DNA from: a virus
Lineage: Duplodnaviria > Heunggongvirae > Uroviricota > Caudoviricetes
Virus record (IMG/VR): IMGVR_UViG_2585427758_000010
Location: 1-14,744 of that record
Strand: one strand, 5' to 3'
Length of the DNA stretch: 14,744 nt
Under the pieces are notes generated by a model, which saw only the letters and a program-made list of their open reading frames with translations, was not told where the DNA came from and did no database searches. A program made the translations under genes and the position numbers. The first letter of the stretch is position 1. Every line of letters starts with the position of its first letter. This document shows, piece after piece, positions 4,009 to 14,188 of the stretch.

Positions 4009-4275
4009 CTGTTTTCTCTGCTGGCGCAGCAGGTGCCAGTTGTTCAGGCTGACGTATGAAGTATAAATAAACTGGCTCCAGTGTAAAGCCCCACCTTAAT
4101 GGAATAAAAACCAAACAACAGATTGCTGGGATAAAAATACAACGCTTATTATTAAAAGCGGTTAGATAAATTAAATTTTAATGTTATGCAAATCTGCCAG
4201 ATTAGCATAATATTTCATTTGAAAACCGCTGAAATAACAATCTTATCGGGATTAATCATATTAAGGTGAGTAAAT

Positions 4276-4362
4276 ATGGAAAACAACAAATCTGCACATT
4301 ACGCTCCTTTTTTATCTGTAATACTTTTTGTATTTTGTTGTGTATGGGCGGTATTTTTATAA
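4276..4362 (+). CDS. Small hydrophobic peptide (28 aa), candidate membrane peptide
   Basis: AAGGTGAG Shine-Dalgarno 5 nt upstream of ATG 4276. Product MENNKSAHYAPFLSVILFVFCCVWAVFL is a polar N-terminus plus one predicted transmembrane helix. Stop TAA at 4360-4362 is followed by the hairpin at 4378-4407. Below the 60-aa threshold of the ORF track. Confidence 0.35.
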   Translation: MENNKSAHYAPFLSVILFVFCCVWAVFL

Positions 4363-4377
4363 AACACACCCACAAAT

Positions 4378-4407
4378 AAATCAAACCCGCTACAGCGGGT
4401 TTGATTT
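4378..4407. terminator. Bidirectional intrinsic terminator between convergent genes
   Basis: Perfect inverted repeat AAATCAAACCCGCT-AC-AGCGGGTTTGATTT with a GC core and T-rich flanks on both strands. It lies 16 nt after the small + ORF and 10 nt after the stop of the minus-strand protease gene. Confidence 0.6.
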
Positions 4408-4416
4408 ATATAGTTG

Positions 4417-6681
4417 TTATACGGAAACTGGCACACGAGCAGGCAATGGATAGTGAGCCCAGTTATTAGCATTTAAAGCTCTTACGCCATCAGCATAAAC
4501 TTGTGTGTTTCCATCTAATGATTTTAAAGTTACTACAATAGTTACAGGTAAAGGCTCCATTAAGGCCGGTTCATTCGCTCTCAACGTTGTTTTAGCTTGA
4601 AGAGCCCAGTTACCCGAAGTAATTCCTTTATTAAATGCCTTGCGATGAATTTTTACTGGTGACCACTTTCCACCATGCTCAATTTGAGCTCTCTCATATC
4701 CAGATTGACCGTTTTCTCCTTCCATAGGTACTTTTCCTTTTATAGTATTATTCTCAATTAAGCCAAAACTTAGCTCTACGTTCGCGCGAACATATTCACT
4801 GCCGGCATTAGGGTTCAGTGGTGGTGCATATGCAGCAGTAATTACAATCTCACCTTTAAATTTTCCATTTTGAATAAGTGCCGATGGTATGGGATAGTTT
4901 TCCTTTCTCCACCTCACCCCAGGAACCAAGAATGTTTGGAAAATCAGAGTAAACCTATCATCACTATCATATAAGGTCTCAATAACCTCATTAGGAATTC
5001 CCGCTCCCAAATAGCGTCTTTCACTTGGCGAGTAATCAGGAGAAGATAATTGAGCGGAATGAATTAATAATGCTTTAATCAATGATGGTGAAACATTAAA
5101 GTCTGAATTAGTGGCTATTCTCTGCCATGTATGCGCAGCTAAACTTGCCACAATTGGAGCAGCAAAACTAGTACCAAAATTAGAGCAAAGCCTATTATCT
5201 GGCCCTACGACCTTTAAACTGCTTGCTCCTACATTCCAAGGTCTATGAACCCCACCGCCAGCATGGATTATATCTGGCTTTGGAGTAAATACAGGCCCAG
5301 GGCCACGACGAGTATATGGTGTCGGTGTTCCAATTTCACTTAAAGCATCATTAGCTTCCATATGAGAAACTGAACCAACTGTTAGTGCTCGGACTGACTC
5401 TCCAGGAGAGGAAATTAAATCAGCACCTCCAAGCGGATCAGGATTTGGCCATGTACGTATAGGTTCATCTACATAATTACCTGCAGCAACTACAAACAAA
5501 ATACCAAATTTATCGCTGAGCCGATCTAACTCCATCGCAAAATCACTAAACATCTGCTCATTACATGGTCCGCCTCCCAAAGATAAATTCCAGACTTTTA
5601 TATCTGGTCTTTTATTTACAGCATCTGCTAGCCTCAGAATTAAATCTGATATATAAGATCCATTTTCATCTAAAGCACAAACATCATGGATTTTAGATTT
5701 TGTATCAGGAATCCATGGATGATTGTCATTTAAAAAATGAGCGCCTGATATCAATGAAGACACCATAGTCCCATGTTCATAACTCGTATCAGGAGGAATT
5801 ACGTATGTTTCCCTACTCACTACCCAAGGAGTAATTGTTGCCGCGATGGGGCTTACCCCAGTGTCAAATACAGCAACAATGGGTAATTCTTCTGATGGTA
5901 CGGGAAAGCTATTTGTTTCAATGCCAACAGAATCACTTACACTAACCGGGAATGCTGAATATTTTGGTTCTGGAATTAACGTTCTTATACCCGGGTAATC
6001 AATGAGAATGTCTAATATATATCTATCATTTGGGGATAAATCCATTATCCTTAATAAGGGAAGACCACATTTTGGTCTAATCTCATCATATTTAACTCCG
6101 TGTTGTTCTAATATAGAAATAACGTTTTCATAGTTGTTGTAAGTTGCATCTTCACCTGTGTACTCAAATAGTCGTACAAGGATGTTTGATGATTCAAACA
6201 AACCATCAGTGCCTCCTGGAACCTTCCTATTCTCATCCCAAGGTTCAATGCGCTCAATCGCGCTTAGGTTAGCCAAAATCGCTTTAATATTCCGATGTAA
6301 AATGACTGACTCTAATACGTCAAAACAGCCGGCATGAGCAGCAACCAACATTTCATCTATTTTGGCATGACCGGCATTTTGCAATCCAGCCTCTTGAGCA
6401 ATTTTGTTCGGCCTATGCGTTTTGGCTATTCCCTGGTCTCTTAATTTGAAAACCAAAGTACCCAAGCTTCCAGGGTACTCTGAAAGTTTGGATTCTAAAT
6501 AATGTTTACTGGTTGTTAAATTTCTTACTAGCCCTTGTCTATATTCGGCTGTTACATCAACCAATACCTTTGCCCCACCGCCAGCGTTTACTATTGCACC
6601 CAAGTCACTACTGGAAAAAGGGATTCTTAACATTGGGTTTGTAACTTTTGCGTTACTAAACTGTGTACCCCTTCTGCTCAT
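4417..6681 (-). CDS. Subtilisin-like serine protease (peptidase S8 family), IetS-like
   Basis: 754-aa ORF with the S8 catalytic motifs in canonical order: Asp in VAVFDTGV, His in HGTMVSSLISG, oxyanion Asn in VVAAGNY, Ser in GTSFAAP. About 270 aa precede and about 200 aa follow the catalytic domain. AGGAG lies 3 nt before the ATG. The 5' end overlaps the upstream ATPase gene by 26 bp. Confidence 0.9.
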   Translation of the reverse strand: MSRRGTQFSNAKVTNPMLRIPFSSSDLGAIVNAGGGAKVLVDVTAEYRQGLVRNLTTSKHYLESKLSEYPGSLGTLVFKLRDQGIAKTHRPNKIAQEAGLQNAGHAKIDEMLVAAHAGCFDVLESVILHRNIKAILANLSAIERIEPWDENRKVPGGTDGLFESSNILVRLFEYTGEDATYNNYENVISILEQHGVKYDEIRPKCGLPLLRIMDLSPNDRYILDILIDYPGIRTLIPEPKYSAFPVSVSDSVGIETNSFPVPSEELPIVAVFDTGVSPIAATITPWVVSRETYVIPPDTSYEHGTMVSSLISGAHFLNDNHPWIPDTKSKIHDVCALDENGSYISDLILRLADAVNKRPDIKVWNLSLGGGPCNEQMFSDFAMELDRLSDKFGILFVVAAGNYVDEPIRTWPNPDPLGGADLISSPGESVRALTVGSVSHMEANDALSEIGTPTPYTRRGPGPVFTPKPDIIHAGGGVHRPWNVGASSLKVVGPDNRLCSNFGTSFAAPIVASLAAHTWQRIATNSDFNVSPSLIKALLIHSAQLSSPDYSPSERRYLGAGIPNEVIETLYDSDDRFTLIFQTFLVPGVRWRKENYPIPSALIQNGKFKGEIVITAAYAPPLNPNAGSEYVRANVELSFGLIENNTIKGKVPMEGENGQSGYERAQIEHGGKWSPVKIHRKAFNKGITSGNWALQAKTTLRANEPALMEPLPVTIVVTLKSLDGNTQVYADGVRALNANNWAHYPLPARVPVSV

Positions 6682-7810
6682 ATGCTCCTGACTCCTTCAG
6701 AATGTTTGAAATTACTCTTGATGTAAGTTTGTACAAATTAGCAAGAACTCTGATAGAAAATAATTTTTTATCTTTAGAACGTAACCAACGAATTTCATCT
6801 TCGTAAGTGCTTAAATTTACACCTTCCATAAGCGATTGCGCAAGATACAAACGCCTATACAATTTATGGTGATTTATCACACTTGCACCTTCAATAACTG
6901 CATCCCTACGTGCATCCAAGCTCACCTGTTCAATTATTGCTCCGGATAATCCCTCCGATTTTCTTGATAAATCACTTAAATCTAGATCGCTACATATCAT
7001 ATTCTTTAAACGATTTTTCCAAATTAACTCTCTCTGATGTATGTCAGGCAGAGGCATTGGAATTCTGAAGCTAAATCGCCTCCAGATTGCAGGATCCAGA
7101 AGTTGCTCATGGTTAGTTGAGGCAATAATTACCGTATCCTCTGATGCCGCATCCATATTCTGCAATAGTGAAATGACAACTCGCTGAAGCTCACCTATAT
7201 CTCTCTCATTACCTCTTGCTCCAGCTAAAGCATCAAATTCGTCTAAAAAAAGCACTGATGGCCTCTGCATTACATAATCGAAAACCTGTCTAAGATTTTT
7301 GCTGGTTTGTCCCAATAAACTACTAATCAAAGTATCGCAACGCACTGTAAGAAGTGGAAAATCTAAGCGGGTAGCGATGTACTTAGATAACATAGTCTTA
7401 CCTGTTCCTGGCTTTCCATACACGAGCATACGACTCGGCAATGCTGCATCAGCTTTAACAAACTCATCATAACGTTGAACATTAGTGATAAACTCTTCAA
7501 CACGGGTACTGATTGCTGCAGGCAGAAAAATCTCTGAACTGTCTAATTTAGGATAACTGACATCAACAGTGTTGAGTCGACTATCAATATCTACCGGTAA
7601 TGAGCCCAGAGATATCCCACCTCCAGCCCTTTGAGCTCCTGCCAACGCCTGGGGAGCTCTAAGCAACCTTTCTCTTATCATTCTGGCTTGCTTGACCTCC
7701 CCTTTTTGTTCGAGCTTATCTGCCAGCAACCCAGCATAATTACTAGCCATCGAAGCATTTGCCTTTGTTGCACCTTCAATGATTTTTAACACTTCTGATA
7801 AATAATCCAT
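6656..7810 (-). CDS. AAA+ ATPase, IetA-like
   Basis: 384-aa ORF. Walker A GKPGTGKT, Walker B VLFLDEFD, sensor-1 and arginine-finger region ...IIASTNHEQLLDPAIWRRF, so classic-clade AAA with an N-terminal domain of about 125 aa. GGGAG RBS 6 nt before the ATG. AT-rich codon usage, unlike the flanking phage genes. Confidence 0.9.
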   Translation of the reverse strand: MDYLSEVLKIIEGATKANASMASNYAGLLADKLEQKGEVKQARMIRERLLRAPQALAGAQRAGGGISLGSLPVDIDSRLNTVDVSYPKLDSSEIFLPAAISTRVEEFITNVQRYDEFVKADAALPSRMLVYGKPGTGKTMLSKYIATRLDFPLLTVRCDTLISSLLGQTSKNLRQVFDYVMQRPSVLFLDEFDALAGARGNERDIGELQRVVISLLQNMDAASEDTVIIASTNHEQLLDPAIWRRFSFRIPMPLPDIHQRELIWKNRLKNMICSDLDLSDLSRKSEGLSGAIIEQVSLDARRDAVIEGASVINHHKLYRRLYLAQSLMEGVNLSTYEDEIRWLRSKDKKLFSIRVLANLYKLTSRVISNILKESGAYEQKGYTV

Positions 7811-8003
7811 TCAACACTCCCACAACAAAAAGCCACAGCAATCAAAAAATGAGCACACAGAATCAAAATACTCTCTAATCGTAACGCATTTTGAGATTTT
7901 TGATACGTTTTTTTGGGATTATGTAACGCCAAATGGTCATTTTGTGTCAGAAAAATAAATCTTAGTACCGAGAATATGTAGCTTCCATCCTTCATCGTTC
8001 TAT

Positions 8004-8435
8004 TCATCCCTGATCTCCAAGCCTCTCTCGAAAACCATTCTGATAAAACGCCAGCACACGCTGCATAACTTCGCTCTTCCGGCACTCGCGACAGATTATG
8101 TTCAGACGCCTGTCGTAGCGGCGTATTTCTCCGTCTGGTAATGACCAGATAAGGTCCGGATCAACCACAGATGGTTTCTTCACCTTTGCCCTGGATAGTT
8201 TTTTGCGGGCATTTTGCCAGTCCTTACGAGCCTGTTCAGACGGGAATAACCCGTAACCAGAGTTGTATACATCGCCACTGGCAACCAGCTCTCTGGCGAG
8301 AACGCTCATCAGATATCTTGTCGCACCTGTCTTGGCTTCCAGTTGCCGTAACGTCTCGCGCCCACTCCGGCGTACTAGCTCAACAACCTGCCCTTTAATT
8401 TTTTCCCGCTCTTCTTGTGTAAATACTTTTGCCAT
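8004..8435 (-). CDS. Hypothetical prophage protein (143 aa)
   Basis: ATG at 8433-8435 preceded by GGAGG at 5-nt spacing; the track ORF 8004..8450 begins at an upstream TTG. Product MAKVFTQEEREKIKGQVVELVRR... with a CRECRK motif. No family assigned. Confidence 0.7.
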   Translation of the reverse strand: MAKVFTQEEREKIKGQVVELVRRSGRETLRQLEAKTGATRYLMSVLARELVASGDVYNSGYGLFPSEQARKDWQNARKKLSRAKVKKPSVVDPDLIWSLPDGEIRRYDRRLNIICRECRKSEVMQRVLAFYQNGFRERLGDQG

Positions 8436-13584: not shown

Positions 13585-13642
13585 TTTCTGGTGACGTTTG
13601 GCGGTATCAGTTTTACTCCGTGACTGCTCTGCCGCCCTTTTT
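13585..13642 (+). ncRNA. dicF: DicF small regulatory RNA (Hfq-dependent sRNA of the dicB operon)
   Basis: TTTCTGGTGACGTTTGGCGGTATCAGTTTTACTCCGTGACTGCTCTGCCGCCCTTTTT matches my recollection of the 53-nt DicF RNA and ends in a GC-rich element plus T5. It sits about 170 nt upstream of dicB, the position it has in Qin. Identity is from memory, not a search. Confidence 0.6.
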
Positions 13643-13811: not shown

Positions 13812-14000
13812 ATGGAAACGTTATTACCAAACGTTAATACGTCTGAAGGTTGTTTTGAAATTGGTGTCACTATCAGTAACCCAGTATTTACTGAAGATGC
13901 CATTAACAAGAGAAAACACGAACGGGAGCTATTAAATAAAATATGCATTCTTTCAATGCTGGCCCGTTTACGTCCGATACAAAAAGGATGCTGGCAATGA
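13812..14000 (+). CDS. dicB: Cell division inhibitor DicB
   Basis: 62-aa product METLLPNVNTSEGCFEIGVTISNPVFTEDAINKRKHERELLNKICILSMLARLRPIQKGCWQ closely matches the DicB sequence I recall. GAGGA RBS upstream. Stop overlaps the ydfD start as ATGA. The track ORF 13707..14000 is an N-terminally extended version. Confidence 0.85.
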   Translation: METLLPNVNTSEGCFEIGVTISNPVFTEDAINKRKHERELLNKICILSMLARLRPIQKGCWQ

Positions 14001-14188
14001 ATACAGCATTTGCACTTGTTCTGACAGTTTTTCTTGTTTCCGGAGAGCCAGTTGATATTGCAGTCAGTGTTCACAGGACAATGCAGGAGTGTGTGACTGC
14101 AGCAACCGAACAGAAAATTCCCGGTAACTGTTACCCGGTCGATAAAGTTATTCACCAGGATAATAACGAAATCCCGGCAGGTCTTTAA
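13997..14188 (+). CDS. ydfD: YdfD (Qin-type small lysis-associated protein)
   Basis: 63-aa product MNTAFALVLTVFLVSGEPVDIAVSVHRTMQECVTAATEQKIPGNCYPVDKVIHQDNNEIPAGL with a hydrophobic N-terminus. Translationally coupled to dicB. Matches my recollection of YdfD. Confidence 0.75.
   Translation: MNTAFALVLTVFLVSGEPVDIAVSVHRTMQECVTAATEQKIPGNCYPVDKVIHQDNNEIPAGL

Follow-up and report, generated by a model that had tools for sequence, protein, structure and literature searches.

An ATPase-subtilase gene pair assigned to the IetAS anti-phage system in a lambdoid prophage of Escherichia coli

What could an AAA+ ATPase and a subtilisin-like protease, encoded side by side, be doing in a lambdoid prophage? 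The question is raised by a stretch of 14,744 nucleotides of Caudoviricetes DNA (hereafter the window). From motifs and context, an initial annotation made without database searches had proposed that the two genes form an anti-phage system of the IetAS type. The present analysis considers the identity of the pair, the organization of its proteins, the anatomy of the DNA segment that carries it and the ways in which it may act.

Identity of the gene pair

The two genes are co-oriented on the minus strand, which the initial annotation had not specified, ietA being located upstream of ietS in the ORF listing:

6656..7810, minus strand: ietA (iteA), 384 aa, ATG start; classic-clade AAA+ ATPase, reported antitoxin/regulator
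4417..6681, minus strand: ietS (iteS), 754 aa, ATG start; cytoplasmic S8 subtilase, reported toxin/effector

The profile-HMM comparison suggested by the initial annotation gave end-to-end matches for both proteins, at 8.9e-143 for the PADLOC IetA model (residues 1-374) and at 3.3e-300 for the IetS model (residues 12-753). The curated NCBIfam equivalog models agree. NF042956 (IteS_antiphage) is matched by residues 15-752 with 1041 bits, for a cut-off of 900, and NF042959 (IteA_antiphage) is matched by residues 1-367, over 367 model positions, with 526.6 bits, a small margin over the cut-off of 510. Furthermore, phrog_3757 and phrog_3964 are recovered as the ietA and ietS matches, a cluster of 1,093 members named IteS has a representative 100% identical to IetS (rounded BLASTP identity), and RefSeq labels near-identical DNA iteA/iteS, a single base differing within the genes (position 6268). 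PADLOC profiles, scores above curated cut-offs and RefSeq names all bear out the proposed defence assignment. Judged by sequence, the pair is the canonical two-gene IetAS system (Gao_Iet; iteA/iteS at NCBI), the profile result being unambiguous. This defence system reportedly goes back to Gao et al. in 2020. It is already catalogued and annotated at this locus, and its identification is not new. Copies annotated as iteA/iteS are found in 78 of the 5,426 complete E. coli genomes (~1.4%), all 78 being full length and at least 99% identical. ECOR52, the source of the system cloned by Wu et al., was not found among 60 of the 78 E. coli matches listed.

As first read, the two genes overlap by 26 nt (6656-6681), provided that ietS starts at the ATG at 6681. 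In the phage record ON470595, the start is called at Met17 and the overlap is absent. The ATG at 6681 is favored by the conservation of N15 and P16, two residues N-terminal to Met17 that are nearly invariant or invariant across the family (alignment of 40 homologues), by the tandem AAGGAG/AGGAG Shine-Dalgarno sequences ahead of it, and by its use in RefSeq. A tight junction is common to the whole family. In 76 of 80 species-level loci, the ATPase gene is directly followed by the protease gene in the same orientation. Among the 76 loci with both genes, 46 show an overlap and 26 a gap of at most 15 nt (together 72/76).

The ATPase and the protease

Four segments of IetA are considered in what follows:

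7394..7417, minus strand: Walker A GKPGTGKT, residues 132-139 (alignment and coordinate check)
7301..7324, minus strand: pore-loop-1 segment SSLLGQTS, residues 163-170 (alignment, p97 comparison)
7238..7243, minus strand: Walker B D190-E191 (alignment and coordinate check)
7076..7081, minus strand: second-region-of-homology (SRH) arginines R244-R245, arginine fingers (alignment, p97 comparison)

The description of IetA as a classic AAA+ ATPase with intact Walker A, Walker B and arginine finger is upheld. Walker A (K138), Walker B, sensor-1 (N233) and the SRH arginines are invariant in an alignment of 32 sequences and align with the p97 motifs. The Pfam AAA family is matched at 2.6e-30, phmmer relates the protein to p97 at 1e-53, and the best Foldseek matches of the AF2 model (pLDDT 78) are PAN/Rpt/FtsH/p97. 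IetA contains a single AAA module, with a family-specific three-helix N-terminus and a C-terminal four-helix extension (314-375) that is confidently predicted by AF2 and has no detectable relatives. Residues 1-101 and 309-384 gave no Pfam match at E up to 10, and profiles built from sub-alignments of the N- and C-termini gave only chance-level matches against PDB sequences. Two readings made by eye, an HTH in the C-terminal helices and a MIT-like bundle at the N-terminus, are unsupported by these profile comparisons.

The aromatic-hydrophobic-Gly pore loop 1 of processive classic-clade unfoldases is absent from IetA across the 32 homologues. It is replaced by L165-L166-G167, nearly invariant to invariant, which aligns with K-L-A-G in p97 D1 and with M-W-F-G in p97 D2. 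Since the aromatic residue is missing, unfolding is not assured. Such a loop would weaken the case for a typical unfoldase and would still be compatible with substrate remodelling.

IetS is organized as follows:

5947..6681, minus strand: N-terminal region, residues 1-245, two tandem modules (predicted model)
5050..5880, minus strand: Peptidase_S8 catalytic domain, residues 268-544 (Pfam, alignment of 40 homologues)
5863-5865, minus strand: D273 in AVFDTGV (alignment)
5773-5775, minus strand: H303 in HGTM (alignment)
5587-5589, minus strand: N365 in WNLSL, the oxyanion Asn (alignment)
5167-5169, minus strand: S505 in GTSFAAP (alignment)
4462..4959, minus strand: C-terminal beta-sandwich, residues ~575-740 (predicted)

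The initial annotation had recognized a complete Asp/His/Asn/Ser set in the protease. D273, H303, N365 and S505 do not vary among 40 homologues (50-84% identity), and the Asp-His-Ser triad, in D-H-S order and accompanied by the oxyanion Asn, places IetS among the subtilases (MEROPS S8/PF00082). The conservation check proposed for the catalytic residues of both enzymes therefore finds every active-site residue of the ATPase and of the protease invariant. The large extra N- and C-terminal regions noticed in the 754-aa protease are also real: because the Pfam Peptidase_S8 match is confined to residues 268-544, the protein has ~267 additional residues on the N-terminal side and ~210 on the C-terminal side. 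Residues 1-267 and 559-754 gave no Pfam match at E up to 10, and a profile of the N-terminal sub-alignment gave only chance-level matches against PDB sequences. Structure prediction, likewise advised at the outset for the flanking domains, is provided by an AF2 model of IetS (pLDDT 82, pTM 0.86). The model has two tandem N-terminal beta-alpha-beta-beta-alpha-beta modules (residues ~74-147 and ~167-237), the second prodomain-like, and a C-terminal beta-sandwich. An invariant motif, A86-K87-x-H89-R90-P91, lies within the N-terminal region, and the N-terminus has no signal peptide-like sequence. Residues 243-266 are described as a disordered linker. In the predicted model, IetS at rest looks zymogen-like, a prodomain-type module being retained and lying against the catalytic domain. 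If so, IetA may act on this module or on the N-terminal region.

The prophage cassette

Both genes belong to a segment with recognizable boundaries and flanking elements:

4068..8040, minus strand: IetAS cargo cassette, ~3.97 kb, GC 0.39 as against 0.51-0.52 in the flanks
7878..7913, minus strand: 36-nt upstream element AAAAAACGTATCAAAAATCTCAAAATGCGTTACGAT, putative promoter/operator of the cassette
4376..4409, no strand assigned: hairpin terminator with a 15-bp stem, starting 8 nt past the ietS stop codon

The gene order is cro-like, YdaT, O-like, YdaV (DnaC-like), DUF1627, DUF977 (Ren-like), ietA, ietS, hypothetical, DUF968, RusA, Q, in agreement with the position first proposed, between the replication genes and the nin/Q region. 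The upstream neighbor of ietA is the DUF977 gene (phrog_142, 'Ren-like') and the downstream neighbor of ietS is a 92-aa hypothetical gene. In Rac/lambdoid prophages this slot, with the Ren-like/DUF977 gene on one side and the nin/Q genes on the other, houses the cassette in three distinct backbones, and Klebsiella prophages carry it there as well. In phage HannyBb, the Ren-like gene is followed by other genes, which marks the slot as a position of variable cargo. The edges of the cassette were set where matches to other lambdoid phages end (query 1-68 and 4041-4101 of the segment 4000-8100), and the cassette is found at 99% identity or more in prophages with differing nin/Q genes. The carrier is a lambdoid prophage of E. 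coli, of the Rac/Qin type, with IetAS as putatively autonomous cargo. The cassette has the 'moron' traits of its own terminator and a deviant base composition. Hairpin/T-run terminators that differ from this one occupy the equivalent place in the cassettes of Klebsiella and Morganella.

The 36-nt element ends 55-69 nt ahead of the ietA ATG. In a comparison covering three genera only, it is matched at 33/36 positions in Klebsiella and at 32/36 in Morganella cassettes, the surrounding upstream DNA being non-aligning; a scan of genome contigs gave no close enterobacterial relatives among the matches listed. It contains a weak sigma-70 reading (GTATCA-17-TACGAT). A scan for consensus sigma-70 sites between DUF977 and ietA (7811-8003) found no promoter, and for this reason expression of IetAS in the lysogen is putative. 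We infer that the element would serve as the promoter/operator of the cassette. It is conceivable that it is an operator read by the C-terminal four-helix domain of IetA.

An open reading frame of the same region, ORF73 (7786-8007, minus strand), was considered as a conserved third gene and rejected, Klebsiella and Morganella having frame-breaking indels and no such ORF. The conserved feature of the region is the 36-nt DNA block. ORF73 matches phrog_9743; it overlaps the DUF977 stop through an ATGA and the start of ietA by 25 nt. An Rfam scan found nothing in the cassette, the sole match in the window being DicF.

The negative promoter scan, together with the mosaic character of the prophage backbone, could suggest a pair without current function, decaying or silent as a passenger in a defective prophage. 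Such a fate is very improbable. Both ORFs are intact and retain all catalytic residues, the 78 E. coli copies are uniformly full length and nearly identical, and the upstream element and the terminator are kept across genera. Moreover, the cassette is present in vB_EcoS-683R6, which was deposited as a phage genome.

Mode of action and relation to known systems

The mechanism of IetAS, described as unknown in the initial annotation, is still so described in a 2026 paper (PMC13069673). The findings established here are the identity of the pair, its gene order, the intact motifs, the anatomy of the cassette and its position in the prophage. The assignment of the protease as toxin and of the ATPase as antitoxin, abortive infection, a trigger of phage origin and the need for the protease active site come from the literature on homologues. 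PMC5006074 presents IetAS of pTiC58 and SgiAT of SGI1 as toxin-antitoxin systems. In Mycoplasma, deletion of the ATPase gene alone from TA132/133 is lethal, and the ATPase is dispensable in the absence of the protease (PMC8562856). For ietHAS, attempts to obtain ietA mutants failed, and defence depends on protease activity (PMC13069673). The trigger of B. cereus ietAS is YosG of SPbeta, and an abortive infection phenotype is seen at high multiplicity (bioRxiv 10.1101/2022.08.27.505566). Finally, E. coli ietAS from ECOR52 is among several single systems giving 'limited' protection against a panel of 29 phages (Wu et al.).

By analogy with these homologues, the pair studied here would defend against phage, IetS being toxic alone and IetA neutralizing it. 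We favor, with somewhat better than even confidence, a canonical IetAS carried as a 'moron' cassette in a lambdoid prophage and acting most likely by abortive infection of the toxin-antitoxin kind. In the uninfected lysogen, IetA, probably a hexamer, would hold the cytoplasmic IetS harmless in an ATP-dependent manner. During infection, this restraint would be upset by a protein of the phage or by disturbed replication. The freed IetS would then cleave cellular (or phage) proteins, leading to growth arrest or death before the release of phage progeny. In a more specific and rather doubtful version, IetS would be a cytoplasmic zymogen with two prodomain-type modules, one bearing AK-x-HRP and the other docked in a pro-subtilisin-like manner, gated by an IetA with a non-aromatic pore that would act on these modules.

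Other modes of action may be envisaged. IetA and IetS could form a proteasome-like machine, in which the AAA+ ring would unfold phage proteins for the protease and thereby confer direct, non-abortive immunity. IetA is indeed nearest to protease-feeding unfoldases (PAN/Rpt/FtsH/Cdc48), the translational coupling of the two genes suggests a stoichiometric complex, and the requirement for protease activity reported for ietHAS would fit as well. However, subtilases are not self-compartmentalising chambers, and the pore loop of IetA lacks the aromatic residue. Furthermore, proteases of the IetS type are toxic alone and neutralized by the ATPase (PMC8562856; PMC5006074), and the phenotype reported at high multiplicity of infection is abortive. 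These observations make a proteasome-like machine quite improbable.

Alternatively, the pair could be mainly an addiction module that stabilizes the prophage by post-segregational killing, phage defence being a side effect or absent. IetAS was reportedly described at first as a plasmid-stability toxin-antitoxin system, and SgiAT stabilizes the SGI1 island (PMC5006074; PMC13069673). In keeping with such a role, all 78 complete E. coli genomes hold a single chromosomal copy, prophage or phage DNA surrounds the pair in each of the three E. coli contexts examined, and the protection given by the ECOR52 system is limited. Against it, anti-phage activity of IetAS homologues is reported by several laboratories and reflected in curated models, and SgiAT expressed from its own promoter does not cause post-segregational killing. 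A predominant addiction role thus seems unlikely, keeping in mind that defence and addiction are not mutually exclusive.

A sequence-only reader had correctly recognized a defence system by its motifs and its context. The biological addition is small for a catalogued system that is RefSeq-annotated at this locus and found in ~1.4% of the complete genomes of E. coli. What value remains lies in a well-delimited E. coli cassette, comprising a promoter-side element, both genes and a terminator, for studying how IetAS works. Two minor new points provide structural leads: the N-terminal modules that give predicted IetS its zymogen-like appearance, and an IetA pore loop that lacks an aromatic residue. 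If the zymogen reading is true, ATP-dependent control over the prodomain of a protease would turn immunity on and off, a mode of control that, to our knowledge, is described for no defence system.

Compared by sequence with IetAS/Gao_Iet (NF042959, NF042956; PADLOC PDLC02196/PDLC02197), the pair has the same proteins end to end, the same gene order, overlap and motifs, and no difference was detected. IetA/IetS of pTiC58 (Agrobacterium) and SgiA/SgiT of Salmonella genomic island 1, likened here by description only, also place an AAA+ antitoxin upstream of a subtilisin-like toxin on a mobile element; they were studied as plasmid or island stability modules, whereas the carrier here is a lambdoid prophage. 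TA132/133 of Mycoplasma mycoides has the same two-gene architecture with similar sizes (353 + 757 aa; PMC8562856), but it is a chromosomal locus of Mollicutes studied outside phage defence, and the present pair is prophage-borne. With ietHAS (Liu-DS4), the IetA and IetS components are common to both (PMC13069673). ietHAS has in addition a SNF2 helicase gene, ietH, whereas the pair here is flanked by the DUF977/Ren-like and 92-aa hypothetical genes, and neither of these two flanking genes proved to be a SNF2-type helicase gene.

At the protein level, IetA resembles PAN/Rpt, FtsH and Cdc48/p97 D2 in Walker A/B, sensor 1, SRH arginines and lid domain, and differs from them by its single AAA module, its Leu-Leu-Gly pore loop 1 and its own N- and C-terminal helices. 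The best structural matches of IetS are pro-subtilisin E (3whi), ProN-Tk-SP (3afg), PCSK9 and Clostridium CspA/B/C. With pro-subtilisins and prodomain-retaining subtilases, predicted IetS shares a beta-alpha-beta-beta-alpha-beta module ahead of the catalytic domain and, with Tk-SP, a predicted C-terminal beta-sandwich after it. In contrast to these subtilases, to which its identity is 16-23%, IetS would have two tandem modules instead of one, an AAA+ partner and an N-terminus that does not resemble a signal peptide.

Identity of the gene pair and its junction

Two long minus-strand ORFs are found in the window, ietA (6656..7810, 384 aa) and ietS (4417..6681, 754 aa). They have 26 nt in common, in agreement with the initial annotation of co-oriented genes overlapping by 26 bp. 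That annotation proposed an IetAS-type anti-phage pair, to be checked by profile-HMM searches. Both proteins were matched end to end by the PADLOC models (IetA, 8.9e-143; IetS, 3.3e-300). The NCBIfam equivalog models, which come with curated cut-offs, gave 526.6 bits for IteA_antiphage (cut-off 510) and 1041 bits for IteS_antiphage (cut-off 900). Moreover, the cluster 'S8 family anti-phage peptidase IteS [Escherichia coli]' has 1,093 members, and its representative is 100% identical to IetS (BLASTP, rounded). Megablast retrieved ietA and ietS in 78 of 5,426 complete E. coli genomes, at least 99% identical, full length, single copy and chromosomal, and there they carry the iteA/iteS annotation. 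The IetAS reading is therefore correct; the observation is confirmed and its interpretation supported. The system itself is not new: the pair is a known one, and this locus already carries its name and annotation.

The motifs assigned to each protein also held. In IetA, Walker A (GKPGTGKT), Walker B (D190-E191), Sensor-1 (N233) and the arginines R244-R245, checked to the nucleotide, are all invariant in a 32-sequence alignment (homologues of 57-86% identity) and fall on the canonical motifs of p97 (HMMER alignment). In IetS, D273, H303, N365 and S505 stand in subtilase order, and none of the four varies among 40 homologues (50-84% identity).

The 26-nt overlap holds only with ATG 6681 as the ietS start. 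This is the RefSeq start and is preceded by two Shine-Dalgarno-like sequences. An alternative start, Met17, is called in one phage record; N15 and P16, upstream of it, are kept family-wide in the homologue alignment. Among the matches listed in an IetA-profile search, an IetS-like ORF lies directly downstream of IetA at 76 of 80 species-level loci, with genes overlapping at 46 of these 76 and at most 15 nt apart at 26. A close ietA-ietS junction is thus a family trait. Two of the 80 loci, L076 and L080, are from a Candidatus Bathycorpusculum grumuli MAG (Bathyarchaeia) and encode archaeal IetA-like ATPases of 35-36% identity; no IetS-like S8 ORF was found within the 2-4 kb downstream of them at the thresholds used. 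The ORF is present at 76 of the 78 other loci listed, the two exceptions ending at a contig edge.

Prophage setting and elements of the cassette

The window matches NZ_CP189662 apart from two substitutions (6268, 13490) and its final part, which diverges from about 14463 onward. In the near-identical RefSeq record, the gene order in the early-right direction is repressor-like, Cro-like regulator, YdaT, HTH O-like, YdaV (DnaC-like), DUF1627, DUF977, iteA, iteS, a 92-aa hypothetical, DUF968, RusA and antiterminator Q, followed by a DNA methyltransferase, tRNAs, lysis genes and terminase; integrase and excisionase adjoin ompW. The DUF977 gene (8004-8435, minus; 'LygF' in phage records), directly upstream of the cassette, belongs to PHROG 142, 'Ren-like exclusion protein'. 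This places the pair at the ren/nin junction, in keeping with its proposed location between the replication genes and nin/Q, and a second putative exclusion gene lies beside it. Elsewhere in the window, the DicF antisense sRNA (13586-13637, plus; Rfam RF00039, 76.7 bits, full length) adjoins dicB (~13812-14000) and ydfD (~13997-14188), a Qin-type cell-division-inhibition module. Together with the Rac-like replication region (ydaT/ydaV), this makes the prophage backbone a mosaic.

The cassette spans about 4068-8040, as bounded by the ends of matches to other phages; the last ~36 nt of the DUF977 gene would fall inside this boundary. Its GC content is 0.39 versus 0.51-0.52 in both flanks. It also occurs in phage record vB_EcoS-683R6, whose nin/Q genes differ, and in NCTC9082, where the prophage is of the Rac type and has recE, racC, kilR, sieB and trkG. 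In Klebsiella prophages, pairs 74-77% identical are found at the corresponding position, following lambda-P-like genes; in Morganella, they lie between icd and a prophage integrase. Phage HannyBb carries different cargo after its Ren-like gene. In P. aeruginosa (contig JBCIYL010000008), IetAS adjoins Fic/DUF4172, NERD, AAA_15/AAA_21 (OLD/Gabija-like ATPase) and an integrase-type gene, a setting that is a defence island and not a prophage slot.

Elements flanking the two genes in the cassette
7878-7913, minus strand: 36-nt upstream block, AAAAAACGTATCAAAAATCTCAAAATGCGTTACGAT, common to the E. coli, Klebsiella and Morganella cassettes
7786-8007, minus strand: 73-codon ORF between DUF977 and ietA, matching phrog_9743 end to end and spanning the 36-nt block
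4376-4409: terminator hairpin with a 15-bp stem, starting 8 nt downstream of the ietS stop codon

The 36-nt block (4781-4816 in L006 and 4767-4802 in L009, two homologous loci) is matched at 33/36 positions in Klebsiella and 32/36 in Morganella, where the non-coding DNA around it cannot be aligned. In the three genera, 55-69 nt separate its end from the ietA start codon. Two A-tract + CGT(A/T) half-repeats, spaced by about 20 nt, lie within it. The block was not found at the 80 more distant loci among the matches listed. It gives a weak sigma-70 reading, and a sigma-70 consensus scan returned no promoter there. The block is probably the promoter/operator of the cassette.

The 73-codon ORF has an ATG overlapping the DUF977 stop (ATGA), an end overlapping the ietA start by 25 nt and a hydrophobic C-terminal stretch; RefSeq does not annotate it. 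No such ORF is kept in the Klebsiella or Morganella cassettes, and it is therefore not counted as a component. At the position of the ietS terminator, those cassettes carry unrelated terminators of the hairpin/T-run kind. Between this terminator and the next phage gene, an AT-rich non-coding tail of about 300 nt (4068-4375, minus; GC ~0.36) contains two promoter-like sites directed toward the nin genes, 4087-4060 (10/12) and 4282-4255 (9/12), and a 12-codon mini-ORF (4261-4299, MCRFVVFHIYSP) preceded by a perfect AAGGAG. The tail is not conserved in the Klebsiella or Morganella cassettes.

Mode of action

IetAS was first known as a plasmid-stabilising toxin-antitoxin pair, the protease being the toxin and the ATPase the antitoxin, according to PMC13069673, which, like the initial annotation, gives the mechanism of defence as not yet known. 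In the three-gene variant ietHAS, defence needs protease activity and ietA mutants were not constructible (PMC13069673). SgiAT of SGI1 is a functional toxin-antitoxin homologue (PMC5006074). In a Mycoplasma pair, the protease is strongly toxic and the ATPase is essential only in its presence (PMC8562856). An IetAS system of B. cereus defends through abortive infection and becomes toxic upon expression of the SPbeta protein YosG; escape mutations also map to replication proteins (bioRxiv 10.1101/2022.08.27.505566).

This literature on homologues leads us to prefer an abortive, toxin-antitoxin-like mechanism, which is rather probable here. IetA would hold IetS in check using ATP, a phage cue would lift this restraint, and proteolysis by IetS would then lead to cell arrest or death. 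Stabilisation of the prophage itself, as an addiction module, is unlikely as the function of the pair; it would be compatible with an abortive defence role. In E. coli ECOR52, ietAS, called prophage-borne, was among several single systems with limited activity and showed synergy with Zorya II (bioRxiv 10.1101/2022.08.21.504612). That the pair, with its invariant catalytic residues, would be a silent passenger is highly improbable.

Architecture of the two proteins

The Pfam Peptidase_S8 match is limited to IetS residues 268-544; the long additional regions at both ends, as initially described, are therefore real. The IetS model (pLDDT 82, pTM 0.86) has the following predicted parts.

IetS ~74-147 and ~167-237: two tandem beta-alpha-beta-beta-alpha-beta modules
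IetS 243-266: disordered linker
IetS, after the linker: S8 core
IetS 575-740: C-terminal beta-sandwich

In the first module, A86-K87-x-H89-R90-P91, G104, E110 and M111 are invariant in the 40 homologues (window ~6349-6426); model confidence is lower over this segment (pLDDT ~66), which may serve for interaction or processing and has no known counterpart. When the N-terminal 262 residues were run by phmmer, as a single sequence, against 1.84 billion representatives, only 69 matches were obtained, all of them at the N-termini of IetS-sized proteins or fragments; by this search, the region appears only in the IetS family.

IetA, a classic-clade AAA+ ATPase with a single module, is nearest to p97/Cdc48 D2, PAN/Rpt and FtsH. 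Its predicted structure (pLDDT 78) comprises three low-confidence N-terminal helices, the AAA core and a confident four-helix C-terminal extension (314-375); no Pfam or PDB relative was found for the N-terminal or C-terminal part. Pore loop 1, S-S-L-L-G-Q-T-S, is invariant or nearly so in the 32-sequence alignment, its Leu-Leu-Gly being aligned with Trp-Phe-Gly of p97 D2 and Leu-Ala-Gly of D1. A proteasome-like machine degrading phage proteins directly is favoured by such relatives and disfavoured by such a pore loop; it is quite improbable.

The remaining value of the locus is that it offers, in E. coli, a small natural cassette with which to work out how IetAS acts. The leads are the conserved upstream element, the predicted zymogen-like IetS and the non-aromatic IetA pore loop. 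The IetS model is structurally like unprocessed pro-subtilisin E (315/355 residues aligned), PCSK9, EpiP and CspA/B/C, which suggests that IetS at rest would be in a zymogen-like state. Typical processive unfoldases, for their part, have an aromatic paddle in pore loop 1, from which IetA differs since its Leu-Leu-Gly leaves it without one.
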